From an uncultured virus (IMG/VR IMGVR_UViG_3300020357_000003) (taxonomy: Duplodnaviria; Heunggongvirae; Uroviricota; Caudoviricetes), in the IMG/VR virus record IMGVR_UViG_3300020357_000003: a stretch of 20,000 bases of DNA. The stretch is one strand, 5' to 3'. The translations under genes were made by a program, and so were the position numbers. Shown here piece after piece: positions 4,335 to 20,000 of this stretch (positions are counted from its first letter, which is position 1; every line of letters starts with the position of its first letter). The notes under the pieces are model-generated. The model searched no databases. It was not told where the DNA came from and saw only the letters and a program-made list of their open reading frames with translations.

Positions 4335-4341
4335 ATAGGTA

Positions 4342-4370
4342 ATGACAATTTATTTAAATAACGGTATTAT
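4342..4370 (+). promoter_or_regulatory. Putative host sigma70 promoter for the ejection-protein/vRNAP operon
   Basis: ATGACA (4342-4347), 17-nt spacer, TATTAT (4365-4370): 5/6 and 5/6 consensus matches, in the largest intergenic gap of the window. SD AGGAG at 4386-4390. N4 late genes are transcribed by host sigma70 RNAP. Confidence 0.6.
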
Positions 4371-4396
4371 TAGGGTAATAAAGATAGGAGTTTGAT

Positions 4397-5272
4397 ATGG
4401 CAGAAAATAATATTCCTTTATGGCAACAATATATTAATCAATATGCCCGTAGAGCAAGTAGACCTACATGGGGCAGACCGCAACAACCTCCTGGGTGGGA
4501 ATATCTAGCTAATCCACAACAATCAATGCCCGCAGTGATACCCACAGATTCAGCAGGTTCATATAGTTGGGCAGATCAGAACGCTTATTCTGTAAATCCA
4601 CAAACAAAAGAAAGGTATTTACCTGGGTGGAAAGCGAATCCCTATAGTGCTACTGGTGGTGTGGATGCAAGAATGCCTAGCTACTATGCAATGTCAGAAG
4701 GCGTAGTTCCAGATGATTGGAATTTCGGTGGTGGTGGTAGTGGTCGTGATAGATGGAAAAGTCTAGCAAGGCTTAGTGGAAATCAAAATTTTCTTAACCT
4801 ACCCACAGCAAATGAGCTAGCACAAACATACGGTAGTGCTAATATTGGTGGTAGTAGTTGGTTTGATACGGATACTGGTACTGGTACTGGTACAACTAAG
4901 GATGAAGATGATCCAGATTTGTATGATCCATTTGATGTAGGTGAACCTTCAGTAGACCAGATGAGATCATCCGCTACAGGATTAATTGATCCCTCTAAGT
5001 ATGGATCAGATTCAATATGGAGCGGGATTAAAGAGTGGACAGGCAAGAATCCAATGAAAGCTGCAGGTATTGGTTTAGATTTATGGAAACAAATAAACCA
5101 AAATAGAGCTTTGTCACAAAATAAAGCATATATGGATGATGTACGAAAAGCCATGGCATTTGATCAAGCTGATGTAAATAGACGTTGGGATCTAACTATG
5201 AAAGACTACAATAGACGAGTAGCTTTAGATGATAAATTCTTAGAGTCTCAAAAATTACCTACAGCAGTTTAA
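4397..5272 (+). CDS. N4 gp52-like ejection protein with long low-complexity N-terminal extension (291 aa)
   Basis: SD AGGAG. C-terminal amphipathic helix plus coiled coil (SIWSGIKEW...AAGIGLDLWKQ...AMAFDQADVNRRW...YNRR). Cys-free. Positional equivalent of gp52. Confidence 0.6.
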   Translation: MAENNIPLWQQYINQYARRASRPTWGRPQQPPGWEYLANPQQSMPAVIPTDSAGSYSWADQNAYSVNPQTKERYLPGWKANPYSATGGVDARMPSYYAMSEGVVPDDWNFGGGGSGRDRWKSLARLSGNQNFLNLPTANELAQTYGSANIGGSSWFDTDTGTGTGTTKDEDDPDLYDPFDVGEPSVDQMRSSATGLIDPSKYGSDSIWSGIKEWTGKNPMKAAGIGLDLWKQINQNRALSQNKAYMDDVRKAMAFDQADVNRRWDLTMKDYNRRVALDDKFLESQKLPTAV

Positions 5273-5282
5273 AGGAGTTATT

Positions 5283-5489
5283 ATGAGAGAACACATGTTA
5301 AATGCTTTACGAGCCTACTACACAGGGCATATTGAAAAGCATAAAATGAACATTGAAAATCTTATAACGAATAATGTAGGTGTTGCAGAACACCCAGACC
5401 ATATTGAAACTATATCGAAAGAAGTGGAATCCTTGGCTAAATACGATGAAATGCTACATATGGTAGATAAGTATTTTAGTCCAGAATAA
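5283..5489 (+). CDS. Small helical-hairpin hypothetical protein (68 aa), family recalled from marine phages
   Basis: SD AGGAG at 5273-5277. The pattern L.AL..Y..G.I.KH..N.E....N.VG..EH.D....I..E...A.Y.......KYF resembles small conserved ORFs I recall from marine T4-like cyanophage-type genomes (not searched). Confidence 0.8.
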   Translation: MREHMLNALRAYYTGHIEKHKMNIENLITNNVGVAEHPDHIETISKEVESLAKYDEMLHMVDKYFSPE

Positions 5490-5498
5490 GGAGCTATC

Positions 5499-7565
5499 AT
5501 GGCAAGAACTAACTTACCAGGGAATATTTTAAAAAGCCTTAATACCAGATTATTAGGCAATTTAAAAAGTGGAGTTGATACTAATATCGACTTAATGCAG
5601 GGTCAAGCTAATCTAGCTGAGCAGGGAGTTCAACGATATGCAGATATCTCTGCACAGGATTTTCTTTCAGATATAGAAGCTGTTAATACGGGTGATCCTA
5701 CACAGGATCTTTTAGCGAGAAATCAGTTAGTTCAACAAATGAAAGCAGACCCTGGTTTAATTGATATGGGTAAAGTTAATGTAGGACTGAGAAATATTCG
5801 AAAACAAGCTCCTATTGATTATTTAAAAGGTCAAGAGGCACAAAAAGCATTTAAAACGCAACATGATATTGACTGGGATACAAAGCACATGCGTGATCTT
5901 CCTAATCAATTTTTAGATGACGGTTCCGTAAATCCTGCTTTTCAAACAAGCTTAGAAAGTAATATTGCCGAAGCTAGAAGAAACAATATTGCTATTCCTC
6001 AAGAAAAAGCTCTGTATCGAAGTATATTCGATAATGATCCCTTTACACTATCAGCAGATACGACTACTACGTTAGAGAATCTATCAAAAGGTGGTGCAAA
6101 AGCATTTACTAAATCAGCACAAGCAGGTGTGATTAATAAAATAGCCGATAACATGGCTAAAAAATATCCTGGAATAACAGACAGGTCTGTATTCAAAACT
6201 AGAGCAGGTACTTTACTAGCTAATTCTAAATACGGTCAAAATTTTACATTAGGAATTGCAGATGAAGCTACTGATACAATTGATACGCTTGCAATAGAAC
6301 GAATGCAAAGTGATATAAGTAACGCTGCTCAGAATTATGGTAAAGGAACGGGAGAAGTCCTTGCTCAAAATAATAAAGTATATAGAGATAGTGTTAATGC
6401 TTTAATTACTTTTATGAATAAAAATAATATTGGAAGCGATCATCCAAACGCAAAAAATCTACAAGCTCCAATATTAAGAGCACTACAACGAGACGGCCTA
6501 TCTTTAGACAGTGTTGTTAAAAACAATACTAGTTGGTTAGCAGAATTAAATAGTGGTGCAATTAAAGTTAGTACTGCACAAAGCATAAAAGGGGCAATAC
6601 GTAGACACTACCAAAATCTATATCCTGAACTTACAGATGGTATTTTTGATCAGCACTACGACAAACTCAAAAATAACGCAGGAAGTGGTATATCAGCAGC
6701 TATTACACAAGGAGCTGCGAATGCTGCAGCTAGGGCAAAGACTATTGCCATAGATATGAAGAACAAAGAGGAATTCTGGTCAAGAGCGAACAGAGATGCA
6801 AATGCAATGGAGTATGAAACTGTTGAGGGTCATATTACTAGATCGTTAATGGAACAACTTAAAAGCGACTATAAAGATGAAGACTTTGACCCAGGTACTG
6901 GGATGGAACTTCAGGAATCAATAAGAAGGACTAAAAATCTATATGATTATGCTATAGGTCGAAAACTTCCTGAAAGCGGCCCCGAAAGGGATGCTTATAA
7001 TTTAGCTCTTAAACGAACAATGCTAAATAGTGTTACTTGGGACACAAAATTCACAGTCGGAGGATATACTGTAGTAAAAGCTGATTTCGGAATGGTAGGC
7101 GCCCCAGGGAATATAAGTCCTGAATGGTGGGATAATTTTCCAAATAAAGTAGATCTGTATAATAGATTTAAAGAGAATATTATACCTGCTAACGCTCTTA
7201 GAAAAGCTGAGAAAAATGAAAGAAAACTTAAAGAAGGATCTAAAAGCCTAATAACGGCAACCAATGACGCTCTTAAAAGTGTTAAATCACAAACACCACA
7301 AATATCAAAGTCTAGGGTTAGTTCTACTTATTCACAAGGTCTTGATCCACTATATCAATTTTCACAAGGAGGAGTAGGAAATCGTTATCAACCATCTACT
7401 ACTGGTCAACCAATTCCAAGTCAGAATACAGGAGGAACTCCGACTGCAAATCCAAACGTTGTAGAATTAGACAATGGAACCTTTCAGGTAACTTTACCTA
7501 ATGGTAAGACGGAAATAATAAGTAGAGAAAAAATGGCAGCCTACACTCTAATGGGTAGGCAATAA
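5499..7565 (+). CDS. N4 gp51-like ejection/internal virion protein (688 aa)
   Basis: SD TAAGGAG at 5487-5493. Directly upstream of vRNAP, helical Ala/Asn/Gln-rich composition, no Cys, size similar to gp51. Assigned mainly by synteny. Confidence 0.6.
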   Translation: MARTNLPGNILKSLNTRLLGNLKSGVDTNIDLMQGQANLAEQGVQRYADISAQDFLSDIEAVNTGDPTQDLLARNQLVQQMKADPGLIDMGKVNVGLRNIRKQAPIDYLKGQEAQKAFKTQHDIDWDTKHMRDLPNQFLDDGSVNPAFQTSLESNIAEARRNNIAIPQEKALYRSIFDNDPFTLSADTTTTLENLSKGGAKAFTKSAQAGVINKIADNMAKKYPGITDRSVFKTRAGTLLANSKYGQNFTLGIADEATDTIDTLAIERMQSDISNAAQNYGKGTGEVLAQNNKVYRDSVNALITFMNKNNIGSDHPNAKNLQAPILRALQRDGLSLDSVVKNNTSWLAELNSGAIKVSTAQSIKGAIRRHYQNLYPELTDGIFDQHYDKLKNNAGSGISAAITQGAANAAARAKTIAIDMKNKEEFWSRANRDANAMEYETVEGHITRSLMEQLKSDYKDEDFDPGTGMELQESIRRTKNLYDYAIGRKLPESGPERDAYNLALKRTMLNSVTWDTKFTVGGYTVVKADFGMVGAPGNISPEWWDNFPNKVDLYNRFKENIIPANALRKAEKNERKLKEGSKSLITATNDALKSVKSQTPQISKSRVSSTYSQGLDPLYQFSQGGVGNRYQPSTTGQPIPSQNTGGTPTANPNVVELDNGTFQVTLPNGKTEIISREKMAAYTLMGRQ

Positions 7566-7597: not shown

Positions 7598-10500
7598 ATG
7601 GCACTTAAAGAAGAGCTACATAACGCAGACATTGTTCAAGCGTTAACTAATGGCGCAACTCCACCAAAACCTTCCGCAAGAGACTCCCTTTTACAGACTA
7701 AAGCCGCTAGTTTAGCTAATGTACTAAATGCTAAACGCAATAGTGTCCATAATCTTAAAGCTACTAGATTAGCACAGGTTATAAATCACAAATATGGTAT
7801 GGGTGGGGCAACTCCCAATGTAGTCGGTACTAACAGTGATACTTTATCTACAGGTGAATTTGGTAATGTTACGTTTTCTGATAAAGTAAATCCAGACCCT
7901 GTAGTTACAGATGTAACAGCTGACCCTCTTACTACTCCTAAATCTTTTACAGAAGAAAATGAGATTTTTACGGCTATAGATGGAGCTGCTGAAGAATTTG
8001 GACTTCCTAAAGCATTATTTCGTTCGTTAGTTTTTGAAGAATCAGGCAATAAACAAACTGCTAAATCTCCAACCAATGTTAGAGGTATAGCTCAAGTAAC
8101 ACAACAAACCATGGAAGAAATGTTACCTGGTGGCGATGTAAATAATGCCGCTCATCAGTTGTATGCTGGAGCTAAGTACTTATCTAAGCATGTTAATAGA
8201 TGGAAACTTAAAGGATTTGACGAACGACAAGCTCAACAGTTAGCTGCTGCATCATATAATACTGGTTTTAGTCGTGTGCTGGAAGCTATTAAAGCAACTA
8301 AAAAAACTCATCCTACAATGCAAGAAATAGAAACTGCTGGTATTGCTCTATTTAAACAACGACCATTTAAAGGTGGAGTTAAAGAAGGCCCTGGTGGAAA
8401 AAAAGTAGCTACCAAAAAACGTAAAGATCTTGATAGTTTTAAAGAAGGTATGGGGCATTGGAAAAAAATTCATTACAAAGATGGTGTATTACAAGATTTT
8501 ACTAAACCTACTCCTCAAACACCGTTTGTTACAAAAATGCCAGAAGCAGTTGAGGAGACGTCCAAGCCAGTATCTAGTCAAACACATAAACCAGAAGACA
8601 AACCAACACCTCCTCCTATTAAAACAATTGATCCATCTGTTGATATTAGTGCTCCTGGTGGTATTGCAAAGGCTGTACAAGAAGCTCCTCCTGCTGATGT
8701 AGATTTACGAGATACTGGGGCAGATCGTAGAAAAGCTGAAAGACTACAAGCACAAAGAAGAGAATTTAAACGAATAGATGAACTTAGAAAAATTACTAAT
8801 AAGGCAGATAAAGAAGAAGTTGTTTTAACACCTACTCACAAATTACCTCATCTTAAAGAGCACAAGCCTCCTACACCTATTACTAAACCTCCTAGTGTTG
8901 ATATAGATAGAAGAGATCCAGGTAAAGACCGTGCAAGAGCAGAAAAACTGCAAGCAGAACAACGAAAATTTAAAAGAATAGATCAAGAACTAAGTAGCCG
9001 TAAAAAACAAAAGAAGTTTAGTGTGGATAGTCTTAGTGGTTATGGAGATTTTGCAACTGGACGTCAGGATCTTTCCGCAAATCAGTATTTAAATTCTGGT
9101 CTTGATACCATTATGGACAATGTCCAGACCAATAAAAAAATTATAGAAGATAAACATGATTCTGCTTATTTTGATAACAAACGTAAACAAGCTCTTACAA
9201 AGAGAGCAGAAATTATTTCTGATCCTAAAGGAACTTATCAACAACCTGCTGTTACTCCTGAAGTTCCAGAAACGGTACCAGAAGTAACACCAGAAGCAGT
9301 TCCGCAAATAGATGTTCCAGAGCCAGATATTTATAGTCCTCGATCTGTACCAAAAACAGTTAGTGAAAATATTTATAGTCCTGCTACTCCTCGCCCTGCT
9401 GAGGCTAAAACTTATGAGGATTTATACAGTTCTTACAAAACTCCTAATGAAGCACTGATTAAAGAAATTTATAAACTACCAGATTTTACTCCATCATCTC
9501 CAATAGTATCTGTAAATCGTAACTTAGTAGAATTACAAGATGGAACATATCGTCTACTTACACAAGACGGTACATGGATGCCTTTTAGCGATAAAATCGA
9601 AGCTCAAGTATTCATGGCTTATGATATTGCAAACTATCAAGCTAATCTTTTGGATCATCCTGAAGAAACATCAGTATCAGGAATGTACAATAAATTAGTA
9701 GGAGGTTTAGTTGATCCTGTTGAAACTATATTTCAAGGATTTGTAGGAGCTACAACTTTAACAGAACATATTAATGATCATAATAATAGACTTAAAGCTG
9801 GAAGTTTTCTGTCGTCTATTACACATGATCCTAATGATGAAATTACTCAGCAAGACAAATTAAACTATTTAGCAATTCAAGAAAATAAAGGACTATCAGC
9901 TGAGTTGCAGGCATTTAAGGATAGTGAAAAGTATCAAGTAATTGCTACTTTAGATAAGGATGCGAAAGAAAACCAAGACCAACAAGCTAAGCTTAAAGAA
10001 TTCTCTAAAATATGGCATGAAGCACATCCATATAATAGAAAATATATTGAAAGTGCTACTACAGCAATGCGTGTAATTGCTAAAGAGCATGGCAATGCGG
10101 CAGCAGCTTTAGAGCTATTTAAAGAATACAAAGGTACTCTTGCCCTACAAGGTCTTGATAGTTTTGGATATACGGTAGCATTAGTATATGGAAATATACC
10201 TGTCCAACTTGGGCTACTTACTGGCTTAGCTAGAGGCAGAACTAAGGCTAATATTGAGCAGTATGTTGCCGAGCATGGTGAAAAGGCATTAACACCTGAA
10301 ATACTTACGGATATTAAAATATTTTCTACTTTACAAGAAGTATCTGAAAAAGTAAGTGCAGGTATAGTTGTAAAACAACTTAAATTAATCCCAGGATTAG
10401 GTGGTGCTGGTTTATGGGGCACACAGATAACGAATGGTGTATTGGCAACTATACATCCTACTGTACGTACGTTAGGTAAAGTAGTATGGGCTCCTCCTAA

Positions 10501-13500
10501 AATGTTTGGTGCTGAGTTTGTACAAGGAACAACTAATTCAATGCTGGAACAAGCGGCATTACAGAAAAAAGTTGATATTGGTAAAGCAGCAGTTGAAGGA
10601 GGAATTCCAGAAGGATTTGCAGTTGGTACTATGGCACCAGCAATGGCAGTTGGAGGAACAGCCAAAGAGGTAACTAAAAAAGTTGCTAAAAAAGCATGGG
10701 ATCCTTCTGGAAAGAAAGCAGCAGCTAAAACAGACAAAGCAACTAAACAAAAAATTGAAAATGAAATAAAGAGCACTCAAGAAAAAATAGAAAAAATTAA
10801 AAAGATGCAAGAAGCACCTTCTAATTTAAAATCTAAATTAGACGCTCTTACTGAACAATTAACTGATTTACAAGATGCTTATGATGAAATACCCAATCTA
10901 CACGGTAAAACTTTAAGTTTACCTGGTCGACCTGGAAAACTGGAAACTACTAATACCTTACTGAAAAAGCTATATAAGCCTTATGAACAGTTAGTTTCAG
11001 ATGGTGCCATGTCATTAGATGACGCTATCGAAGCAATGAATGATGATTTAGAAGCTGAAATAGAGAAAAGACTAGAAGAGAAAACTAATTTAGAAGAGCA
11101 ACTGCCTGATCCAATCACACTTGAAGATACTGTTGAATATGTACAACATGAGGGCAAAGCAGTACCTGTAGGGATTGGGGCAAGAAAAATGACTGAACTC
11201 TTAGAACTTGAACTCCAATTAGAAACAAAAATAGCTGAACATAAGAGTAATGTTGAAAAGATTAATCAAAGTGACATACCTGGGCCGAAAAAACAGGAAG
11301 CTATTAAAATAGAAGAACAGAAACATGCTACATACCTAGAAGGAGCAATTAAAAAACAGGATAAATTGCTTAATGAGTTACAAGCTCCTCTTAACCCAAC
11401 AATGCTCAAAGTCTATGAAAAACAATTAATAGACGTTAATGATAGAAGAACTAAGGTACTTGAAAATGAATCATATAAAGCAAGTCCTAAGTCTCCGACT
11501 ATGCCAGGATCCGCAAATCCAAAAGGATTTAGGGCTGATGGAACAGGTAGAGATGTAGACAAAATTTCAGATGAAGAAGTTGATGCTCAAATTACATTAA
11601 TTAAAAAGATGAGCGAAGAAGAAGATCCAGATATTACGAATTTTGATCCAAGTGGAAAGTTTAAACCAGGAGACGTAGTTCATTTAAATACAACTGATGA
11701 AGAATTACTTAAAAAAGGTGAACAAGGATTTGTTATTGAAACAATCCTAGGCAAACAAGAAAGAGATGGGAAGGTTCATGTAAAACTTGCAGGAGTAACT
11801 GAAACTGTCCCAATTGATTCATTAATATTTGGAAATAAACCACGAACTGATACAACTCCTTCTACAAAATTAGATCATGTAGAGGCATTAATTGATAAAG
11901 ATTTAACTGATGCACAGATTACAAAAGTACGAGAACAACTCTCAAAAGAAATAAAAGAACTAGAAGAAAAAATAGGAACTGGTAAGAGAGTTCTAGGGTC
12001 ATTAGAAGATAGGCTTGATGAAATAGAAAAGTTAACTCCAGAAGAATTAGAAAAGAAATTAGCAGAAGCCAAGTCCCCAGATGACATAAAATTCTGGACA
12101 GCTAAACTTAATCAAAAAAGAATTCAAAAAGAAAGAGGTGAAAAACAAGACGCTATTGATAAAGATATGGCAACGGTACATGAGGAAATTCTTGAAGGGG
12201 AGAGCAAGAAATTTAAAGGATTACATGCTTACTACACAGACATTGTAACAGCCCTTACTGAATTAACAGATCATGTAAAACTCACAAGACGACTTGAATC
12301 TCTTGTTTCAGATATGCGTACTCATGCTACTAATATAAACAATAAATTAAATGCATTTGATAATGCCTATGAAATATTTACTAGTACTGGTAAAGCCGTA
12401 GCTGTTGTGGGTACTAAAGCTGAAAATAGTAGAGATATGACCTATGAAGTAGTAACAGATATGACCGAGACTCAAATTGATGAAGCACATAAAAAGAAAT
12501 TATATAATGGAAAATTTGCGTATGTTACAAAAATAGATAAAAACTCAGGTAGATTAATTGATACGCTTGCTGGGGAAGTAAATTATGGTAATTGGATTAT
12601 GGGGGTAGTTGAAGGACATAGAAATACTTCTATGGCTAAAAATGAATTCAATAAAGCCCGAAATCTTGCTGAACACGAAGAAGTTTTAAGAAGATTAAAA
12701 AAAGCTAAAGATTCTCTTAAAGCACCTGAAATAGATGAAGCAACAATAGAGGGAATATCAGTTGAAGACATTCCTACAACTCCGACTGCTATTCTTAAAG
12801 AAAACCTAGAAGCTATTTTACAAAGAGGGTTGGAACTTAAAAAGAAAATAGACGAGGGTACAATAACTCCAGAGGAAAAAAATGAACACGAATCTCTCCA
12901 ACAAAGCTATATTGCTCTCAATAAAGAAATTCAAGGACGAGAAAAGATTGAAGGAGCAGAACCAGGAGAACAACTTGACCTTTTTCCAGAAGGTGAAGTC
13001 CCTGAAAGATCTGATGAACCACCTGGCCCAACTACTACACCTTTTGATGAGACTACTCCACCTCCTAGACCGGGTGAAAAAGGAGAGCAACTCTCGTTAT
13101 TCGACAGATCTGCCGAAGATACAACAGAAAAAGGAACACAATTAAATCTGTTTCCTAATTTTATTGAAGGCAGCAAACGAATATACAAAAGAGCTATTAC
13201 AGGAGGTGTACTTAAAGTATTAGGCGGTAAATTAACGGCTACTAATTTAGAACGGCAGTTAAAAGTACTTGGTGCGTATTTTACAGACTTAGTTCAAATC
13301 GGATCCACACGACCTACATTAAAAGATGCTGTTAATACTCTGATGGATGAAGATTTTGATACTCAGGAATCGTTAGTTAATGCCTTAATGAATTTAGGTG
13401 TAACACAAGCATCGGCTGAAACATTATCTAAAAACTTTACGCATTTTAAAAATAGATATGATCAAGTTAGTTCTATAGATTTATCAAGAAAAGAGGTTGT

Positions 13501-16500
13501 AATACGGACGGTTAATAATGTTACAGACGTAGATAAAGATGGGAATCCTATTCTATGGAAAGTAGAAGAATTAAGTAGAGACATAAATGATGCATATGAT
13601 AAAGATGGTCAATACACTAGAGTAAGTAGAGAGATTAAAGATGCATCTGGTAATATTCAGACCACGACTAAGGTATTGCCTACATCTGAACTATTAAATG
13701 TTAGAAATCATGCTTTAAGAGCCCCGTTAACTTTACTTCTTCAAGAAGATCCTACTGGTAATAACAATCAAGGTGTACTACCTAATCAGATAGTATTTAC
13801 CATGATGTTAACAGCTATGTCTTTTAGACAACGTACCCCTAACAATAATAGATTTAAGGATAACGACTTTGCAAAAGAAGCTTTTCTATATAGTGGTAAG
13901 AACCAAACACTTAATAGAAATGAAGATGAGGAACTTAATGACGTTGGTTTTGGGTACCATGATGCAGCTATGGATATGGGAAACCATGCTATTAGTATTT
14001 TAGATCTAAGAGCTAAAAAAATCCCTAAAGACAGTCCTATAGACCAAGTAGGAGCGGATCTATATTTTGAACTCCTAGCTCCTGCACTTGGAATGATGGC
14101 CTTAGAAATTGCTCAAGGCACTGATAAAGGTGCTTATTTTTCTGTAGAGAAAAAATATTGGAATTTTGATGATTACAATGAAAATAGGGCTTTTAACAAT
14201 GCACCTACGCATGAAAAAGTCTCTGATAATGAAGAGATTAGAAAAAAATATCCAGAAGGTAAACCTATACCATTAGAACAACAACAGCATTACTTACATA
14301 TTAAAGTAGATGAAAATCAAAAATGGAACCAAAGTACTTTTGATGCCTTAGAAGAAATGAAAAGTATCTCTAAGGCTAATATGATTAATAGTCCTGGCCC
14401 TTTTCAAACTCCTCCTCCAATAAACCCATCTACAGGTACTTTTACAGAAGCTCCTAAAGGTGGGGAAGTTTATGAAACACTTAAAAGACTTCAAAATGTT
14501 GTATGGAGTAAATTAGAGTCCATGGATCTTGTGGCTGATTTACGAGACACAGATGTCTTGAAAGAGCTAATGGATGTTGAGGAGTTATACGAAACTACTG
14601 AGGATGGTGAAAAAATACAATTATTCCATGACGTTGAAATAGCCAGTAAAACATCTAGAAATAATGGAATGCTAGATACTTTGCAGGAACTATTACAGGC
14701 ATATGATCGTGGGGAATTAACAGCATTTCATTTAGCTTGGAAATTACAAAGCCACCATAGGTATATGCAGGTAGGTAAGATTAATCCTCAAAATAGTAAA
14801 CTTACTAGAGGCTTAGTAGGTGCTTGGGGACTTAATAAAATTTCCGTAGATAATGAACAACAGTTTACTAATTTTAAATTAGCAATTAATGAAGCTTTTG
14901 CTGTAGAGAAAAAAGATTTAGTTGAATCAGAAGAAGCCTTTCAGAATATTATTAATCACTCAAATGTTCTAGCAGCTGTAGAAGCTATGCAACGTCTTAA
15001 TGCCGCTAAAGGAATTCTTAGAACTAAACCTAAAGATGCCAAGGCTAAGAAGGATAAAGACAGAGCTTCTCAAGATCTATCCTCAGCTTTATCAGCAATT
15101 AAAAAAGATAATACATTTAAAGAAGCTGATATTACTCTCCTAAATGGTATTACTGCATTATCTAAATACATGACAGTAGAAGCTATTCAGAAAACTAAAG
15201 CAGGTTATCCAAGTAGAAATAAAAGATATACTAAGAATTTTAGACGAATTGAAGACAAATCAAAATCTACTTTTGAAACTGATCTTTATACTGAAAGGGA
15301 CGGTACTTCTAATGGTTGGGCTATAAATGTACTCCAGTTTCCTATGTGGGACAAAGAAGAACGTATACGTAAGAATAGTCAAGTAGGCCATAATCTTAAA
15401 GATAAGTCCTTTGATCCAAAAGAACCTGGTGTTTATGAAGATCTAGTTAAATTTATGCAGAATAATGACTCTGCTGATGTTGCTTGGGAATGGTACAAAG
15501 ATAAGTATAAGAAAAAAGTATTTTCAAGAGTGTCAAAAGACCTAGTTGATAAAAAAAGATATACTCTGACAAAAGAGGGAGAAGCTAATTTTAAAGAGGA
15601 CTATAACAAGATTAATGCCGCTCTTATAATTATCTATCCAGAGTTTAGAGATCAGGAATCTATGAGGGAGGTTGTTAAGTATCCTTTTATTATGAAGATG
15701 TATGGTGGAGGAATAGCTAATATAGCTAATGAGGTAAGTAATGAAGTAAATAAAGCTATGTACTCACGAATTAGTACTATTCAAAAAGAATACAAAGAGA
15801 TTTTTAATAATGAAGAAGAGGAACTCCTACGTTCAGATATACCTGCATTCCTTACTAAAGTTACTAATAGAAAAGGAGTACCAGACGCTAAACAATATGC
15901 TAAAGAAGATCTTACAAATAGAATTTATACATTAAGAATTTTTAATTCTAATACTATTCCAGGATTAACTGCATCTCAGCATTTTGGAAATCCTTGGGCG
16001 TCTAGAGATATCCCAGGTACTATCAAAACACCAGATATAAAAACTGCTGTTAATAATTATAAAGCATGGTTAGAGGGTACAGCCCATCAAGATGTAGAAC
16101 CTAACCGTAGAAAATGGATTCGTAAACAAATTGGTGATGGTAATTTAGATGATAAAGAATTAGTTTACTACACGACATTGTCGGAACCTAGCCATGCAGA
16201 TGTACTAAGAGATTTGGTAGAAGAAACCTCAAAAACAGCGCTTCCTGTAGACACCCATAAATACAAAAGATATGGATTTTTTGAAAATAGAAAAAATTAT
16301 GAAAAGCAAATTATTACACCTTTTATGGATGCTTTAGAAACACTAAATGCATTTAATCAAACAGATCGAGGAGCTCTTGGTCGAATGTTAATAGAAGGTA
16401 CTAAAAAAGATTTAGGTATAACTCCTCCTGCTTTTAAAGTAAAGCTTAATGACATACAGGTACGTGCAGAATTAAATACTCGTGTTGCTCCTAGATTTGA

Positions 16501-19500
16501 AGCTAGTTTAGATGAGTTACTTGGGGATACTGTAGAACCTCGACAATCAATAGTCGAAATGGGAGACGTACTACACCAAGTATTTATGGTTCATTTTGAA
16601 GAGGCTATTAAGAATAAATTAGATGAAATTAATTTAGATGCCCCTGTTATGGAAGATGTACCTGTTGAAGTTACACAAGGCGCCTATACGTTTAACGTTA
16701 TAAAGACTAAAGATGGCTTTAGCATTACTAATAAGAAAACAGGCAAACCTGCTCCTAAAAACATGGCAGCGAAGACTCGCAAAGCTATTGAGGATAAGGC
16801 TACTGAGCAACTTAGGGCTGTTAGGCCTGGTTTAACTAAACAAGAAGTTATTGATCTGGTTAAGGATAAACAAGGCTTAATGAAATTCTACCCTCAAGTA
16901 GCTGGTGCTTTAGCTACAAGGCTCCAAGATGGAACAATTGAAGGTGGTATTGATTTAAGTTCTACTAAATTTACAACTAACAAAGGTGATATAGAAGAGA
17001 ACCAAGCTGAAATTAACTTTTATGATCGTGAAAGACAAAAAGATACATCCAGATCTACACCTAAACGATCATTGGTATTCGATGCAGCTGGATTAGCTGT
17101 GCTAATTCGTCAGGTTATCAACCAAGACGCATCAGCTATGACTAGGCTACTTTTGAAAAAAGCAGAAATAAATGCTCTTCATGATGGATTTAATGCCAGT
17201 AGTAATTGGGCAAATTACTTAACAAGAACCTATAACAAAATACACTGGGAACTCAATACAACCCATAGCATTATGGAAGCAATGCATAATCAAATGCTAG
17301 GGGTTCTGCGTAATACAGATCGTAAAGATATAGTAGATGCTATAGAACTAACTGAGAAAGAACAAAAACGAATAGCTAGAGAAGAAAAATTAACTGCTAA
17401 AGCTATTCAATTAATGGAAGAGTTTAGACAAGATATAGATAATCGAACTAAAGCTGCAAAATTAAATGATTTTATAAAGGAACATAAACTTGACGCTGAC
17501 AGATTGAGAATGGGATTTAAGAATGCCAAGGTAGGTAAAACACTTACTAGATTAGATAAAGTAAAAATGCGTGTATGGGAAGCTAATCCAGAATACCTTG
17601 AGTGGAATGACAAATCTAGTCTTAGTGTTATATCTGAAAGAGCTAAAGCAATTACACAAAAAGTACGTGAGCAAAGACAAAAGCTACTAGAAGATGGCTA
17701 CACTAATATAGACCATATGTATAATTTATCTAATGAAGAATTATCTGAAACTGACACACTAAATGAGTTTGAACAAAACTATAATAAGAATACAGAAACA
17801 TTTAGCTTTACATCTTTTGAAGCAATGGGAAAATCTATGGGTTATAACCCAAAGATATCTAGAGATAGTGGTAATTTTAATAAACACTATAGAGAGCAAA
17901 CTAATTTATTTCCTGCTTATAATAAAGATTTAGATATAAAACTTACAAAATTAGGTAAAAAATTGGGTCTTCATTCTTTAGACGCTTTTCCTAAAGGTGA
18001 AATAACTTCTACTGAAGAACTAGGGGCTATTACTAGTGATAATGTTAGATCACTATTTAATAAATTTAAAGCTCTTTCAGGTAAGTACTACGATAGTCAA
18101 GATGAAATGGATTCACATACATCTACGTTAAATGAAGTATTAGATATTATATCTGACGGGTTTCAAGAAACTAATGATCTTACTTTAACAATGGAGAAAA
18201 TAGAAGGAATTACTCAAGCAACTTATGAACCAGAAAGTGAACGCATAACTATGTCTGTTAGTCAATTACCTCCTAGAGGGCGTAATGGGCAATCACCACA
18301 GGAAGCATATCTTCATGAAATGGTTCATGCTATGACATTGGTTGCACTGGAAGAAGATCCTGTATTAGCAGATAGACTTGAAAGCTTACATAATGAATTA
18401 GAAGCTGAACTACATAAAGATTTTAAGGGTGAGGGCTGGAAAGTATTCCGTCCTAAAGGAACTAGTCCAGTTAATTTAGCTACAGGTGCAGAAACTAATC
18501 TAGCAAAAGCACAATATAAACATGCTTTCGACACAGCAAATTCTAAGGATAGACTAACTGAGTTTTTATCAATGGCTCTTACGAATAGATCTTTAATTGA
18601 TTATATGAAATCAAAACAACTTGCTAAAGATCGAAGCTATTTAACTAAATTTATGGAATTCGTTCAATCAATTGTAAATGCTTTTAAACGAATACTTAAT
18701 AAGAAAGTAGAGTCCAATAATACGACAGCTTATGCTGAAGCTATAGCGATTACGGAACAATTAGTTGCTATGCAAAATAAACATAAAAGTAAATATGGTC
18801 AATTAGATAGTAAAACTATTCAATTTTTAGAACGCTCTGACGCTCGGATAATTGAATTTTTTGATCAAGCTGTTGCAACAGTAGCTGCTGAAACAGAAAA
18901 ATACGGGCCAGGTGGAGAAACGGCTCCAATACCATTTAAAGTTGCAACTATGGGTACATATGCAGGGTACCTAACCATGAGTGATAGTGTTCACGCTAAA
19001 GCAACTAGAGATCACATTATGGGTTTGCTTAATTTTACTATGCGTGGTGTTGCTAAAGAAATAGGAGGCGGTGCTTTAGAGAATCCGAAACTGGTAGAAC
19101 AACTACTTCATTCTAAAATTAATATATCTAAAAGACGTAGAGAAGCAGAGACATTCTCTAATGAATGGTTTAAAACTATCTGGAAATCCAGACCAGATGA
19201 TAGTGGAGATGATAAATGGATGTCTTTTGAAACTCGAGAAGCTCTTACTGATGTACTTTTAAGAGCAGATCTATCTAGTCTTCGTAAGATGCATACTTTA
19301 GGATTTGCAGATAAAGATCCTAATGCTACTAGAAAAATTATGAACTTATTAGGAGAGGATAAGGTTGCTAGAATTGAAAGAAGTAGATTAAAAGATCAAA
19401 TTAGAAGGCAACTTGGGTTAACTAAAGATAGTGAAGCTATAGCATATGCAGATGAATTAGGTTACTGGATTGCAACTGGTAAACGCAAAAAACATGATGC

Positions 19501-20000
19501 ATATACTAATGCGTATTCTATTGCTCTTGACCACTTAGAAGGAGACTTTACTCCAGCACAAGTTAATTTATTAGATGCATATGCGACTATATCTTCTATC
19601 CCTCATCTTGATATTCAACAACGGGAGAAAGTTCAGCAACTATCTACTAGAGAATTTAATGCAGATCCAGATGCTAATGGAATGATTGATTTACTCGATA
19701 ATCATATCTGGTACAAAACAAAATCTCAAAGAGATCTGTTTGATGGAGATCCTGTTCAAATGGTTAAAGGCTATATTGTTGAACGTCTGGATAATCTTAC
19801 AGATATTAAAATTGGATCAGCTGCGGATAAAGATAAGATGGCTGCTCGTGGATATAAACACTCGTACCCATTAGGTAAAATAGATAGATCACAAACACTG
19901 GATACAATGTATATCAATAGAAATATTCCAGAAGTAGCTGATATATCCGGGATTATGTCTACGACCAATCAACGACATATGGGAACCTCATTAACTGAAA
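7598..20000 (+). CDS. vRNAP: Giant virion-encapsidated RNA polymerase (N4 gp50-like), >4134 aa, 3'-truncated by the window
   Basis: Manual translation from ATG 7598 (in-frame TAA at 7586-7588 upstream) shows no stop to the window end. Polymerase motifs: QSHHR...NPQ (14747-14791), motif A LYTERDGTSNG (Asp 15299-15301), motif B REVVKYPFIMKMYG = Rx3Kx7YG (15665-15706), motif C ALHDG (Asp 17183-17185). HEMVH at 18314-18328. Confidence 0.95.
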   Translation, partial: MALKEELHNADIVQALTNGATPPKPSARDSLLQTKAASLANVLNAKRNSVHNLKATRLAQVINHKYGMGGATPNVVGTNSDTLSTGEFGNVTFSDKVNPDPVVTDVTADPLTTPKSFTEENEIFTAIDGAAEEFGLPKALFRSLVFEESGNKQTAKSPTNVRGIAQVTQQTMEEMLPGGDVNNAAHQLYAGAKYLSKHVNRWKLKGFDERQAQQLAAASYNTGFSRVLEAIKATKKTHPTMQEIETAGIALFKQRPFKGGVKEGPGGKKVATKKRKDLDSFKEGMGHWKKIHYKDGVLQDFTKPTPQTPFVTKMPEAVEETSKPVSSQTHKPEDKPTPPPIKTIDPSVDISAPGGIAKAVQEAPPADVDLRDTGADRRKAERLQAQRREFKRIDELRKITNKADKEEVVLTPTHKLPHLKEHKPPTPITKPPSVDIDRRDPGKDRARAEKLQAEQRKFKRIDQELSSRKKQKKFSVDSLSGYGDFATGRQDLSANQYLNSGLDTIMDNVQTNKKIIEDKHDSAYFDNKRKQALTKRAEIISDPKGTYQQPAVTPEVPETVPEVTPEAVPQIDVPEPDIYSPRSVPKTVSENIYSPATPRPAEAKTYEDLYSSYKTPNEALIKEIYKLPDFTPSSPIVSVNRNLVELQDGTYRLLTQDGTWMPFSDKIEAQVFMAYDIANYQANLLDHPEETSVSGMYNKLVGGLVDPVETIFQGFVGATTLTEHINDHNNRLKAGSFLSSITHDPNDEITQQDKLNYLAIQENKGLSAELQAFKDSEKYQVIATLDKDAKENQDQQAKLKEFSKIWHEAHPYNRKYIESATTAMRVIAKEHGNAAAALELFKEYKGTLALQGLDSFGYTVALVYGNIPVQLGLLTGLARGRTKANIEQYVAEHGEKALTPEILTDIKIFSTLQEVSEKVSAGIVVKQLKLIPGLGGAGLWGTQITNGVLATIHPTVRTLGKVVWAPPKMFGAEFVQGTTNSMLEQAALQKKVDIGKAAVEGGIPEGFAVGTMAPAMAVGGTAKEVTKKVAKKAWDPSGKKAAAKTDKATKQKIENEIKSTQEKIEKIKKMQEAPSNLKSKLDALTEQLTDLQDAYDEIPNLHGKTLSLPGRPGKLETTNTLLKKLYKPYEQLVSDGAMSLDDAIEAMNDDLEAEIEKRLEEKTNLEEQLPDPITLEDTVEYVQHEGKAVPVGIGARKMTELLELELQLETKIAEHKSNVEKINQSDIPGPKKQEAIKIEEQKHATYLEGAIKKQDKLLNELQAPLNPTMLKVYEKQLIDVNDRRTKVLENESYKASPKSPTMPGSANPKGFRADGTGRDVDKISDEEVDAQITLIKKMSEEEDPDITNFDPSGKFKPGDVVHLNTTDEELLKKGEQGFVIETILGKQERDGKVHVKLAGVTETVPIDSLIFGNKPRTDTTPSTKLDHVEALIDKDLTDAQITKVREQLSKEIKELEEKIGTGKRVLGSLEDRLDEIEKLTPEELEKKLAEAKSPDDIKFWTAKLNQKRIQKERGEKQDAIDKDMATVHEEILEGESKKFKGLHAYYTDIVTALTELTDHVKLTRRLESLVSDMRTHATNINNKLNAFDNAYEIFTSTGKAVAVVGTKAENSRDMTYEVVTDMTETQIDEAHKKKLYNGKFAYVTKIDKNSGRLIDTLAGEVNYGNWIMGVVEGHRNTSMAKNEFNKARNLAEHEEVLRRLKKAKDSLKAPEIDEATIEGISVEDIPTTPTAILKENLEAILQRGLELKKKIDEGTITPEEKNEHESLQQSYIALNKEIQGREKIEGAEPGEQLDLFPEGEVPERSDEPPGPTTTPFDETTPPPRPGEKGEQLSLFDRSAEDTTEKGTQLNLFPNFIEGSKRIYKRAITGGVLKVLGGKLTATNLERQLKVLGAYFTDLVQIGSTRPTLKDAVNTLMDEDFDTQESLVNALMNLGVTQASAETLSKNFTHFKNRYDQVSSIDLSRKEVVIRTVNNVTDVDKDGNPILWKVEELSRDINDAYDKDGQYTRVSREIKDASGNIQTTTKVLPTSELLNVRNHALRAPLTLLLQEDPTGNNNQGVLPNQIVFTMMLTAMSFRQRTPNNNRFKDNDFAKEAFLYSGKNQTLNRNEDEELNDVGFGYHDAAMDMGNHAISILDLRAKKIPKDSPIDQVGADLYFELLAPALGMMALEIAQGTDKGAYFSVEKKYWNFDDYNENRAFNNAPTHEKVSDNEEIRKKYPEGKPIPLEQQQHYLHIKVDENQKWNQSTFDALEEMKSISKANMINSPGPFQTPPPINPSTGTFTEAPKGGEVYETLKRLQNVVWSKLESMDLVADLRDTDVLKELMDVEELYETTEDGEKIQLFHDVEIASKTSRNNGMLDTLQELLQAYDRGELTAFHLAWKLQSHHRYMQVGKINPQNSKLTRGLVGAWGLNKISVDNEQQFTNFKLAINEAFAVEKKDLVESEEAFQNIINHSNVLAAVEAMQRLNAAKGILRTKPKDAKAKKDKDRASQDLSSALSAIKKDNTFKEADITLLNGITALSKYMTVEAIQKTKAGYPSRNKRYTKNFRRIEDKSKSTFETDLYTERDGTSNGWAINVLQFPMWDKEERIRKNSQVGHNLKDKSFDPKEPGVYEDLVKFMQNNDSADVAWEWYKDKYKKKVFSRVSKDLVDKKRYTLTKEGEANFKEDYNKINAALIIIYPEFRDQESMREVVKYPFIMKMYGGGIANIANEVSNEVNKAMYSRISTIQKEYKEIFNNEEEELLRSDIPAFLTKVTNRKGVPDAKQYAKEDLTNRIYTLRIFNSNTIPGLTASQHFGNPWASRDIPGTIKTPDIKTAVNNYKAWLEGTAHQDVEPNRRKWIRKQIGDGNLDDKELVYYTTLSEPSHADVLRDLVEETSKTALPVDTHKYKRYGFFENRKNYEKQIITPFMDALETLNAFNQTDRGALGRMLIEGTKKDLGITPPAFKVKLNDIQVRAELNTRVAPRFEASLDELLGDTVEPRQSIVEMGDVLHQVFMVHFEEAIKNKLDEINLDAPVMEDVPVEVTQGAYTFNVIKTKDGFSITNKKTGKPAPKNMAAKTRKAIEDKATEQLRAVRPGLTKQEVIDLVKDKQGLMKFYPQVAGALATRLQDGTIEGGIDLSSTKFTTNKGDIEENQAEINFYDRERQKDTSRSTPKRSLVFDAAGLAVLIRQVINQDASAMTRLLLKKAEINALHDGFNASSNWANYLTRTYNKIHWELNTTHSIMEAMHNQMLGVLRNTDRKDIVDAIELTEKEQKRIAREEKLTAKAIQLMEEFRQDIDNRTKAAKLNDFIKEHKLDADRLRMGFKNAKVGKTLTRLDKVKMRVWEANPEYLEWNDKSSLSVISERAKAITQKVREQRQKLLEDGYTNIDHMYNLSNEELSETDTLNEFEQNYNKNTETFSFTSFEAMGKSMGYNPKISRDSGNFNKHYREQTNLFPAYNKDLDIKLTKLGKKLGLHSLDAFPKGEITSTEELGAITSDNVRSLFNKFKALSGKYYDSQDEMDSHTSTLNEVLDIISDGFQETNDLTLTMEKIEGITQATYEPESERITMSVSQLPPRGRNGQSPQEAYLHEMVHAMTLVALEEDPVLADRLESLHNELEAELHKDFKGEGWKVFRPKGTSPVNLATGAETNLAKAQYKHAFDTANSKDRLTEFLSMALTNRSLIDYMKSKQLAKDRSYLTKFMEFVQSIVNAFKRILNKKVESNNTTAYAEAIAITEQLVAMQNKHKSKYGQLDSKTIQFLERSDARIIEFFDQAVATVAAETEKYGPGGETAPIPFKVATMGTYAGYLTMSDSVHAKATRDHIMGLLNFTMRGVAKEIGGGALENPKLVEQLLHSKINISKRRREAETFSNEWFKTIWKSRPDDSGDDKWMSFETREALTDVLLRADLSSLRKMHTLGFADKDPNATRKIMNLLGEDKVARIERSRLKDQIRRQLGLTKDSEAIAYADELGYWIATGKRKKHDAYTNAYSIALDHLEGDFTPAQVNLLDAYATISSIPHLDIQQREKVQQLSTREFNADPDANGMIDLLDNHIWYKTKSQRDLFDGDPVQMVKGYIVERLDNLTDIKIGSAADKDKMAARGYKHSYPLGKIDRSQTLDTMYINRNIPEVADISGIMSTTNQRHMGTSLTE
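7976..8473 (+). other. SLT-family (GH23) lytic transglycosylase domain at the vRNAP N-terminus
   Basis: IDGAAEEFGLPKALFRSLVFEESG (catalytic Glu 8039-8041), AKSPTNVRGIAQ (GLMQ-type motif 8084-8095), QLYAGAKYL, AAASYNTG (AYNxG motif, to 8266). Confidence 0.88.
8687..8983 (+). repeat. Diverged ~31-aa internal duplication in the vRNAP
   Basis: PPADVDLRDTGADRRKAERLQAQRREFKRID (8687-8779) versus PPSVDIDRRDPGKDRARAEKLQAEQRKFKRID (8888-8983). Confidence 0.85.
9251..9382 (+). repeat. Pro/Glu/Val/Thr low-complexity repeats and an exact 14-bp direct repeat in the vRNAP linker
   Basis: VTPEVPETVPEVTPEAVP. ATATTTATAGTCCT at 9327-9340 and 9369-9382 (DIYSP / NIYSP). Confidence 0.8.
11660..11824 (+). other. 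KOW/SH3-like beta-barrel domain in the vRNAP
   Basis: FKPGDVVHL...GEQGFVIETI...DGKVHVKLAG..ETVPIDSL: F-x-x-G-D-x-V start and strand pattern typical of KOW/Tudor/SH3 barrels, embedded in coiled-coil sequence. Confidence 0.6.
12971..13153 (+). other. Three tandem beta-sliding-clamp-binding-like motifs
   Basis: QLDLF 12971-12985, QLSLF 13088-13102 and QLNLF 13139-13153, in an acidic Pro-rich disordered linker. Bacterial consensus is QL[S/D]LF. Confidence 0.75.
13250..17720 (+). other. Single-subunit (T7-superfamily, N4 mini-vRNAP type) RNA polymerase domain; boundaries approximate
   Basis: Motifs A, B and C in the correct order. NPQxxKLxR, AGLAV...DA preceding motif C, and terminal IDHM (N4-like VDQM). 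Confidence 0.9.
15923..16219 (+). other. DUF4326-like domain inserted within the polymerase between motifs B and C
   Basis: IYTLR...HFGNPW...AVNNYKAWL...LDDKELVYY...PSHADVL parallels the recalled DUF4326 pattern YIGR...WGNPF...Y..WL...L.GK.L.C.C...CH.DVL, with the Cys residues replaced. Confidence 0.7.
18180..18610 (+). other. Zincin-like metallopeptidase domain in the vRNAP C-terminal region
   Basis: Beta strands (ATYEPESERITMSV), then EAYLHEMVHAMT (HEXXH at 18314-18328), then a downstream candidate third ligand in RLTEFLSMALTN. Confidence 0.8.

Follow-up and report, generated by a model that had tools for sequence, protein, structure and literature searches.

The virion RNA polymerases (vRNAPs) of phage N4, gp50, and of Pseudomonas phage DEV, gp71, are the closest described counterparts of the protein studied here. 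In N4 gp50, a low-complexity linker of 100 amino acids (aa; residues 907-1006) has been described between the membrane-inserting N-terminal domain (NTD) and the RNA polymerase (RNAP) domain (PMC13434306, 2026). It was proposed that the RNAP and the C-terminal domain refold in the cytoplasm and stay anchored to the membrane via this flexible linker as a tether (PMC13434306), and the same topology was proposed for DEV (PMC11445570). Here, we analyzed a stretch of 20,000 nucleotides from an uncultured virus of the Caudoviricetes (IMG/VR record IMGVR_UViG_3300020357_000003), which we refer to as the window and which carries the gene of a giant vRNAP. In the linker that leads into the polymerase domain of this protein, we found three copies of QLxLF, a motif known from bacterial ligands of the sliding clamp DnaN.

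The use of a sliding clamp in transcription has so far been described for T4, which employs its own clamp, and for Mu, which employs the host clamp via an activator of the host RNAP. Late transcription in T4 depends on the phage clamp gp45 together with gp33 and gp55, involves a different, C-terminal motif and uses the host RNAP core. The present locus would resemble T4 in that a sliding clamp is coupled to phage transcription, but T4 has a clamp of its own, and none was found here with PF02768, PHROGs and Pfam. The Mu protein MuC is described as a phage transcription component with near-consensus clamp motifs that needs the host clamp (PMC12867686, 2026). MuC is a small activator that acts late with the host RNAP and sigma70 and has no homology to the giant polymerase, whereas here the motifs are located on the single-subunit polymerase itself, which is predicted to be delivered with the genome and to act first. 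The clamp motif as such is well defined: according to a review, a canonical motif has the form Q-aliphatic-x-[L/M]-[F/L] or Q-aliphatic-x-[L/M]-x-[F/L], QLxLF and QLxLxF bind most tightly, the strongest of the consensus peptides is QLDLF, the motif of Pol V reads QLNLF, and negatively charged flanks favour clamp binding (PMC11139829).

The linker of the giant vRNAP comprises aa 1781-1850 (12938..13147, + strand) and is located between the N-terminal region and the RNAP core. A first-pass annotation, made from the DNA letters alone, had placed three QLxLF motifs in it, and translation of the window reproduced its coordinates and residue numbers exactly. The motifs are GEQLDLFP with Q at aa 1792 (QLDLF, 12971-12985), GEQLSLFD with Q at aa 1831 (QLSLF, 13088-13102) and GTQLNLFP with Q at aa 1848 (QLNLF, 13139-13153), all of them within 62 aa. 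QLDLF, QLSLF and QLNLF each fit the definition of the clamp motif, and all three are canonical in the wording of the review (PMC11139829), while the annotation had called two of them exact matches to the bacterial clamp consensus QL[S/D]LF. They are part of a set of four linker elements. Motif A, PGEQLDLFPEGEVPE (12962..13006, +), contains QLDLF; motif B, TPFDETT (13037..13057, +), is a second conserved element; motif C, PGEKGEQLSLFD (GEKGEQLSLFD; 13073..13105, +), contains QLSLF; and motif D, KGTQLNLFPNFIE (13130..13165, +), contains QLNLF and abuts the start of the folded RNAP domain.

The clustering of the motifs is far from chance. For the whole protein, the expected count of QL.LF is 0.053, and three or more copies occurred in 2 of 20000 whole-protein shuffles. 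When the 85-aa linker alone was shuffled, at least two copies were obtained once in 200000 shuffles and three copies in none of the 200000. Moreover, all leucines of the 85-aa linker (6/6) are located inside the motifs. The codons for Leu, Leu and Phe are CTT/CTT/TTT, CTC/TTA/TTC and TTA/CTG/TTT in the three copies; a recent tandem duplication at the DNA level was rejected on account of these differences, and the repeat is therefore maintained at the protein level. A scan for Q[LM].[LM]F in six-frame open reading frames (ORFs) of at least 70 aa over the about 70.6 kb of phage DNA (contigs C12 and C22, see below) retrieved only these three motifs. A maturation-protease site was also considered as the identity of the motifs and was dropped, since the pattern is unlike any cleavage motif known to us.

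We modelled aa 1761-2700 with AlphaFold2 (42-row alignment; mean predicted local distance difference test score (pLDDT) 78.4, predicted template modelling score 0.73). Residues 21-90 of the model, which correspond to aa 1781-1850, have a pLDDT below 50 and no secondary structure, and across motif D the pLDDT increases from a value of 39 in model block 81-90 to one of 77 in block 91-100. In a Foldseek search with the folded part, the ten best matches were all N4 mini-vRNAP or gp50 entries (top match 3c3l_B, E 2.4e-8), followed by mitochondrial and T7 RNAPs. AlphaFold2 and Foldseek thus agree with the annotation that the motifs are found in a disordered acidic linker which ends at the polymerase domain. 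Motifs A and C are both within the segment predicted to be disordered and accessible, and self-docking on the RNAP, which the annotation had named as a finding that would speak against its proposal, is not seen for these two motifs on the modelled part. The linker contains 18 acidic, 7 basic, 11 Pro and 8 Thr residues, and its acidity fits the motifs, because negative flanks favour clamp binding. By its position, it is the counterpart of the NTD-RNAP tether of N4 gp50, and, judged from the homology with N4 and DEV, it would be exposed to the cytoplasm.

The comparison with known clamp ligands and with the known vRNAPs shows which parts of this arrangement have precedents. Bacterial clamp ligands such as Pol III alpha, Pol II, Pol IV, Pol V/UmuC, Hda, MutS/MutL and delta use the same pentapeptide grammar, and they are also alike in the disordered segment, the acidic flanks and the occurrence, in relatives, of the hexameric form QLxLxF. 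In contrast to these ligands, the carrier here is a phage virion RNA polymerase and not an enzyme of DNA replication or repair, and three predicted motifs are arranged in tandem on an inter-domain tether instead of one motif at a terminus. With N4 gp50 and DEV gp71, the giant protein shares the RNAP fold, the PHROG, the gene neighbourhood and, as far as the published descriptions extend, the same plan of an N-terminal region, a long flexible linker, the RNAP and a C-terminal domain of large size. It is, however, about 1100 aa longer than these two proteins and has an SLT domain at its N-terminus as well as an FGNPW domain as an insertion. The N4 linker (residues 907-1006) is without a clamp-binding motif.

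In order to follow the motifs through related proteins, relatives were collected in three ways. A word-indexed search gave 7 long homologues; from an exhaustive HMMER search, the best 150 of 263 proteins at E <=0.001 were used; and a DNA-level search with a degenerate form of the LP[DN]Q..F.MM box, which is located downstream, gave 22 metagenome loci. Among these, 13 have a long open frame, namely 12 loci that served as relatives and L054, whose linker matches that of the window's own protein. The linkers, aligned on the start of the RNAP domain, share a plan with four conserved positions that correspond to motifs A to D. At position A, relatives have GEQLDLFPEGTLPEG, GEQLGLFPEGTLPEG, GEQLPLFEEGEIPEG, GTQIPLFEEGEIPEG, GEQLELPFKEGELP and QQGELFPEGELP, with GEQLDLFPEGT[LI]PEG as one of the forms. 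At position B, EVFDETT, DIFDETS, PISDETT, PVSDETT, PVSDEAP and PGSDEVA are found; more lineages have retained this element (hydrophobic-[FS]-D-E-T-T) than have retained the QLxLF motifs, and we know of no partner for it. Position C is occupied by GEKGYQLPLLFG, TGYQLPLPFG, TGYQPPLPFG, GEKGYQSPLFG or GETGYQSTLFD, and position D by KGEQLKLFPNFIEG, KGEQLKLFTNFIES, KGEQLEFPFTGKNFIE and PGEQFEFSFAGKNFIE, which follow the patterns KGEQLKLF[PT]NFIE, KGEQLEF[PA]FTGKNFIE and PGEQFEF[PS]F.GKNFIE.

The changes at these positions are those of a short motif. Homologous linkers contain QLDLF, QLGLF, QLPLF, QIPLF, QLELPF, QLPLLF and QLPLPF; Q, an aliphatic residue, L and F are kept at homologous positions, and the third position varies (D, G, P, S, K, N or E). 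Pentamers alternate with hexamers of the type QLxLxF (QLELPF, QLPLLF, QLPLPF), which are the two known forms of the clamp motif, and relatives that have the same motif positions are only 30-45% identical elsewhere. Of 26 proteins, 5 have loose motifs in the stretch of 130 aa that precedes the anchor; 8 such motifs were counted in 3414 linker residues, compared to 12 in the remaining 222212 residues of these proteins, an enrichment of about 43-fold. When 330 aa were considered, canonical motifs were present in 7 of 28 linker clusters, compared to 1.27 expected from shuffles, and near variants only were present in 3 more clusters. The counts for the 330 aa are slightly too low, as the anchor removed QFEFPF in P0004/P0010 and, in P0022, the second motif.

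The bacterial clamp with which the linker would interact was sought in G001, a 1.4-Mb bacterial genome (98% complete) that contains both contigs of the phage at 100% identity; one end of the 47.7-kb contig C12 is identical to the window. The co-assembly of the two phage contigs and the similar G+C content (30-37% in host loci, 34-38% in the phage) are suggestive of G001 as the host. This genome has one dnaN, the product of which is closest to solved proteobacterial beta clamps. Of the 18 residues listed for the peptide pocket of the E. coli clamp (PMC11139829), 16 are identical in this DnaN, the exceptions being R246K and V344N, and its C-terminus reads MPMRI. With G001 as the presumed host, a clamp with a conserved pocket would thus be present in the same cell. 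The DnaE of G001 has QVSLF and its Hda-like protein starts with MKQLLLDI, and the clamp clients of the candidate host therefore use the same code. No phage clamp or clamp loader was found on C12 and C22 with PF02768, PHROGs and Pfam; in the search with PF02768, the dnaN of the host was the single match in G001, and the virus record gave none.

We then modelled the predicted interaction by co-folding a DnaN dimer (29-row alignment A1, with G028 left out) with the 76-aa linker. The interface score ipSAE was 0.56, 0.57 and 0.57, compared to 0.00 for the best of three controls; the control in which an unrelated protein took the place of DnaN scored 0.00. The runs agree in at least 70% of the contacts, and the partner has a pLDDT of at least 47; the interface was not reported. 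Of 157 solved complexes, 116 pass the same mark, as do 2 of 215 mismatched pairs, and a score of <=0.60 was seen for only 18 of those 157 and for both passing mismatches. The result was graded as weak support. Modelling with DnaN had been proposed in the first-pass annotation for the motif peptides; the pass obtained here with the linker is a weak one (ipSAE 0.57), may have been drawn from memorized structures and does not show binding.

Based on these findings, we consider it probable that the linker binds the DnaN of the host, whatever role this binding may have. That the binding serves to tether or to recruit is a real possibility, in which we place less confidence. After ejection, the N-terminal region would stay at the inner membrane, with the linker and the RNAP in the cytoplasm as proposed for N4 gp50, and the motifs would dock on the host DnaN, in the hydrophobic cleft that lies between its domains II and III. 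The membrane-anchored ejection and transcription complex would then keep hold of the clamp, or the polymerase would be retained on DNA that bears a clamp, and such a tether could support early transcription, transcription-driven genome entry or the hand-over of transcripts to replication. Primed sites, that is, RNA:DNA hybrids, are the substrates of clamp loaders. As, in the absence of SSB, the vRNAP of N4 is described to leave RNA:DNA hybrids on templates that are single-stranded (PMC4496689), a role in priming or hand-over is conceivable for the enzyme studied here. In a more specific version of clamp tethering, for which we see a slim chance, the clamp would sit at the cytoplasmic mouth of the ejection channel, and the end of the DNA would thread through the ring without a loader, which would lock the RNAP to the genome and create a clamp-assisted DNA-pulling motor; at a later stage, this clamp could also deliver the 3' ends of early RNAs to a DNA polymerase. 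If this were true, it would be the third case in which a sliding clamp was independently coupled to transcription in a phage, and the first that involves a single-subunit enzyme of the virion.

Several observations weigh against binding to the host clamp or against its use as a tether. Motif D straddles, with aa 1848-1852, the start of the folded domain and may, according to the model, be less accessible than A and C. The distribution of the motifs is patchy: in 18 of the 28 linker clusters, canonical and near-variant motifs are both lacking, and when only 150 aa are considered, canonical motifs are found in 3 of 28 non-redundant linkers (5 motifs compared to 0.55 expected). None of the ten distant, classical-size vRNAP linkers among the 28 clusters has the motif, N4 gp50 is without it anywhere, and three further named Schitoviridae vRNAPs have no QLxLF pentamer and one loose hexamer pattern each. 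Of the scan of Schitoviridae that the annotation had suggested, the enrichment over shuffled sequences was borne out, and the motifs are kept in a part of the clade, but they are lacking in the four named vRNAPs. Since these four proteins and 18 of the 28 clusters are without the motif, the sequences compared here characterize the cluster as a lineage-restricted short linear motif with turnover and not as a trait of the Schitoviridae in general. Several relatives carry non-canonical variants (QLEFPF, QFEFSF, QPPLPF, QSPLF, QSTLF, QGELF), and some conserved flanks, namely Gly at -2 and PEGxxPEG after motif A, are not needed by clamp motifs. On the mechanistic side, a clamp works on DNA only when it is loaded, and its loading onto incoming phage DNA is the main gap in the proposed mechanism. 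In the six-frame scan, the phage DNA polymerase was without a Q[LM].[LM]F motif, so that a hand-over to replication has no obvious receiver. Furthermore, the assignment of G001 as the host draws on co-assembly and composition only and is suggestive. The pass in the co-folding is a weak one and, because many clamp-peptide complexes have been solved, it may reflect the memory of these complexes; what it shows is that the linker resembles a clamp ligand to the model, which is no proof of binding.

The conserved flanks could point to a different or an additional partner, and this leads to the alternative that survives best. Gx-Q-L-x-L-F(-PEGxxPEG) could be a short linear motif for a partner other than DnaN, for example other domains of the polymerase itself, a further hub of the host, or an ejection or virion protein that takes part in packaging, unfolding or trans-envelope channel assembly, and its likeness to the clamp motif would then be coincidental. 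Besides Gly at -2 and PEGxxPEG, the NFIE that directly follows motif D and the presence of motif B (h-[FS]-DE-T-T) in the same linker would be in line with such a partner, as would the variants with Phe at the fourth position (QLEFPF, QFEFSF), which fall outside the canonical clamp definition. In addition, parts of the vRNAP are described to contact the periplasmic tunnel protein in DEV (PMC11445570) and in N4 (PMC13434306). The pattern of substitutions and the alternation of pentamers and hexamers, however, fit a clamp motif specifically, AlphaFold2 does not dock the linker on the modelled part of the RNAP, and the co-folding score vanished when DnaN was replaced by an unrelated protein. We know of no alternative partner motif that would correspond to the pattern, and we regard another partner as possible but on the unlikely side.

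The same sequence evidence that speaks for clamp binding is shared by a second alternative, according to which the motifs bind the host DnaN for takeover. In that case, the linker would occupy the clamp's one cleft for protein binding on entry and displace Pol III, Hda or repair factors, and host replication would stall or be mis-regulated. Three motifs per chain provide a multivalency that suits competition, and the genome of G001 is very small (1.4 Mb), so that the number of clamps may be low. N4 reportedly has a separate early inhibitor that is aimed at the clamp loader, as the title of that work says, and the replication machinery is hence a known target of phages. As a further parallel, overexpressed MuC of phage Mu is described to disturb Hda/DnaN-dependent control via its motifs (PMC12867686). 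The stoichiometry argues in the opposite direction: since the N4 virion is reported to contain 4 +/- 1 copies of gp50 (PMC11445570), few polymerase molecules would enter the cell, and bulk sequestration would be weak except where there are very few clamps. For this task, a membrane-tethered linker would also be less suitable than an early protein that can diffuse. Overall, we judge takeover to be unlikely, although less so in a very small cell.

A further alternative is that the motifs are an evolutionary relic or a neutral repeat without a present function. Disordered linkers evolve fast, and many relatives as well as all four named Schitoviridae examined are without the motifs. This explanation is nevertheless difficult to reconcile with three copies that are kept at the protein level with diverged codons, with the confinement of all linker leucines to the motifs, with the recurrence of the same positions in relatives that are otherwise 30-45% identical and with the about 43-fold enrichment over the rest of the proteins, and we consider it very unlikely. 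Binding to a phage-encoded sliding clamp, for which one may cite that T4 activates late transcription with its own clamp and that several ORFs of the phage have no annotation, is highly improbable, given that PF02768, PHROGs and Pfam found no clamp on C12 and C22 although replication genes were found there, and that the motif is of the bacterial beta type.

For the favoured binding to the host clamp, the literature provides the motif but not the carrier. The annotation had stated that no clamp-tethered virion RNAP is known; our literature search likewise retrieved no description of such an enzyme and nothing that joins a clamp-binding motif and a virion RNA polymerase. The word clamp is absent from the main text of the N4 gp50 structure paper (PMC13434306), and the sliding clamp is not mentioned in the literature on N4-like phages and their vRNAPs among the matches listed. 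Publications with QLxLF, QLSLF or QLDLF among the matches listed concern, judged by their titles, bacterial clamp clients, transposases and Mu. From its sequence, the element would be a docking motif of a known type whose carrier and setting are new.

The gene itself is present in the window with the first 4134 of 4638 codons (7598..19999, +; phrog_2206, 'virion RNA polymerase', E 5.2e-87). Its frame is still open at the window end, the 3' part being located beyond it, and the full-length protein of 4638 aa was retrieved in the protein search (P0002). The N-terminal and central part of the single-subunit RNAP core is encoded at 13154..15697 (+), where it was modelled to aa 2700; the core extends further, and PF21894 gave a weak match at aa 2690-2733. 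The protein thus has a single-subunit RNAP fold of the N4 mini-vRNAP type and belongs to the vRNAP family by sequence. A phmmer search of the whole protein against the PDB gave no match, hence the need for the fold search, and tblastn of aa 1601-2600 against 50,697 phage records gave no match either; the protein is therefore very divergent. The 76-aa linker, too, was without a tblastn match among named phages up to an E value of 10. Its C-terminal domain matched 80 records of named phages at ~23% identity, and the three that were fetched are Schitoviridae. We conclude that this is the gene of a giant RNA polymerase which is predicted to be packaged in the virion and which belongs to a marine, deeply divergent phage of the N4-like type.

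Close to the N-terminus, aa 127-237 form an SLT lytic transglycosylase domain (7976..8308, +; PF01464, E 5.5e-13; phrog_342, 'internal virion protein with endolysin domain'). A cell-wall-cutting function of the T7 gp16 type is in this way fused to the polymerase, whereas the muramidase of N4 is a separate gene. The homology and this N-terminal SLT domain, which is typical of internal virion proteins, suggest that the polymerase travels in the virion and enters the host by ejection. The N-terminal region further contains a hydrophobic segment at aa 859-878 (10172..10231, +; Kyte-Doolittle mean 1.47 over 19 aa), which is conserved in relatives and is a candidate membrane-spanning helix. In three of the relatives (P0005, P0006, P0007; 4900-5000 aa), RecD/UvrD-type helicase matches (PF13604, PF13538, PF13245, PF13401) are found in the same giant polypeptide as the SLT and vRNAP domains.

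A domain of ~140 aa is inserted in the polymerase region at aa ~2750-2890 (15845..16267, +) and is recognized by the signature [FY]GNP[WFY]...RR.WI...SHA..L (FGNPW...SHADVL in the giant protein). This domain (query ~1050-1190) is common to more than 100 otherwise unrelated proteins among the matches listed, and [FY]GNP[WFY] is present in 90 of the 158 collected proteins. At an E value of 0.01, Pfam has no family for it or for four stand-alone homologues. In P0018, P0011 and L051, the domain precedes the RNAP core; its position thus differs among relatives, in the manner of a mobile module. QLDLF or QLSLF is also present in four proteins, stand-alone or multidomain, that share the FGNPW domain (P0105, P0130, P0135, P0154), namely as NKQLDLFADN, PTQLSLFEEQ, PNQLSLFGEL and PQQLSLFDNQ. 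The motif is located mid-protein in P0130 and in linker-like or near-C-terminal stretches in P0105, P0135 and P0154, which hints that this domain family is often clamp-associated.

The window represents the structural half of an N4-like phage, and its ORFs match PHROGs of N4-type virion proteins. Upstream of the polymerase gene, three genes (938, 291 and 688 aa; 1518..7565, +) are located in the position of the N4 ejection-protein genes gp53, gp52 and gp51. The 938-aa protein matches phrog_2220, and the other two are without a family; from their position and from the gene order compared with N4 and CB4, all three probably have an ejection-protein function. The gene content of C12 also includes major head, portal, terminase and tail genes. 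The second contig in G001, C22 (22.9 kb), carries an N4-like RNAP II, a family A DNA polymerase (39% identity to that of N4), helicase, primase, SSB, ligase and exonuclease genes as well as the last 348 aa of the giant protein (phrog_2206, E 7e-36). The ejection-gene neighbours, the N4-type portal and capsid, RNAP II, the family A DNA polymerase and the primase, compared with N4 and CB4, thus place the vRNAP gene in an N4-like genome. The two contigs make up a nearly complete, lytic-type N4-like phage genome inside G001, and host genes flank neither of them; their presence could be due to an infected culture or sample or to a binning artefact. A metagenome contig of 70,845 bp, close in size to the about 70.6 kb of C12 and C22 together, carries L054, whose translated linker region is the same as that of the window, and a search of IMG/VR for near relatives retrieved only two contigs, both of them 100% identical to the window.

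Two further observations concern the phage genome. Paralogues of 2OG-Fe(II) oxygenases are unusually many, with at least 8 ORFs that match phrog_81 or phrog_61 (C12, L007:7258-16243 and L008:4682-5257; C22, L044:640-1224). They adjoin a radical SAM protein and a DNA methyltransferase, and this set suggests a chemistry of DNA or nucleotide modification. Near the terminase genes, a 113-aa ORF (L008:3680-4021, -) matches the RepL plasmid replication family (PF05732, E 4.8e-12).

The clamp-binding motif is well understood, and the proposed interaction can be tested with peptides and point mutants. Should the binding fail, the linker would still be a conserved module with multiple motifs (A, B, C and D). 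The location of the motifs on the tether provides a concrete hypothesis for how the polymerase engages DNA and pulls it in and for how early transcription is connected with replication; for this step, gyrase and SSB are given as the known host factors in N4 (PMC4496689). If clamp binding is true, a polymerase with motifs of its own would widen the theme of clamps in transcription, and marine N4-like phages would have rewired their dependence on the host, such that the first enzyme of the phage in the cell grabs a part of the host replication machinery.

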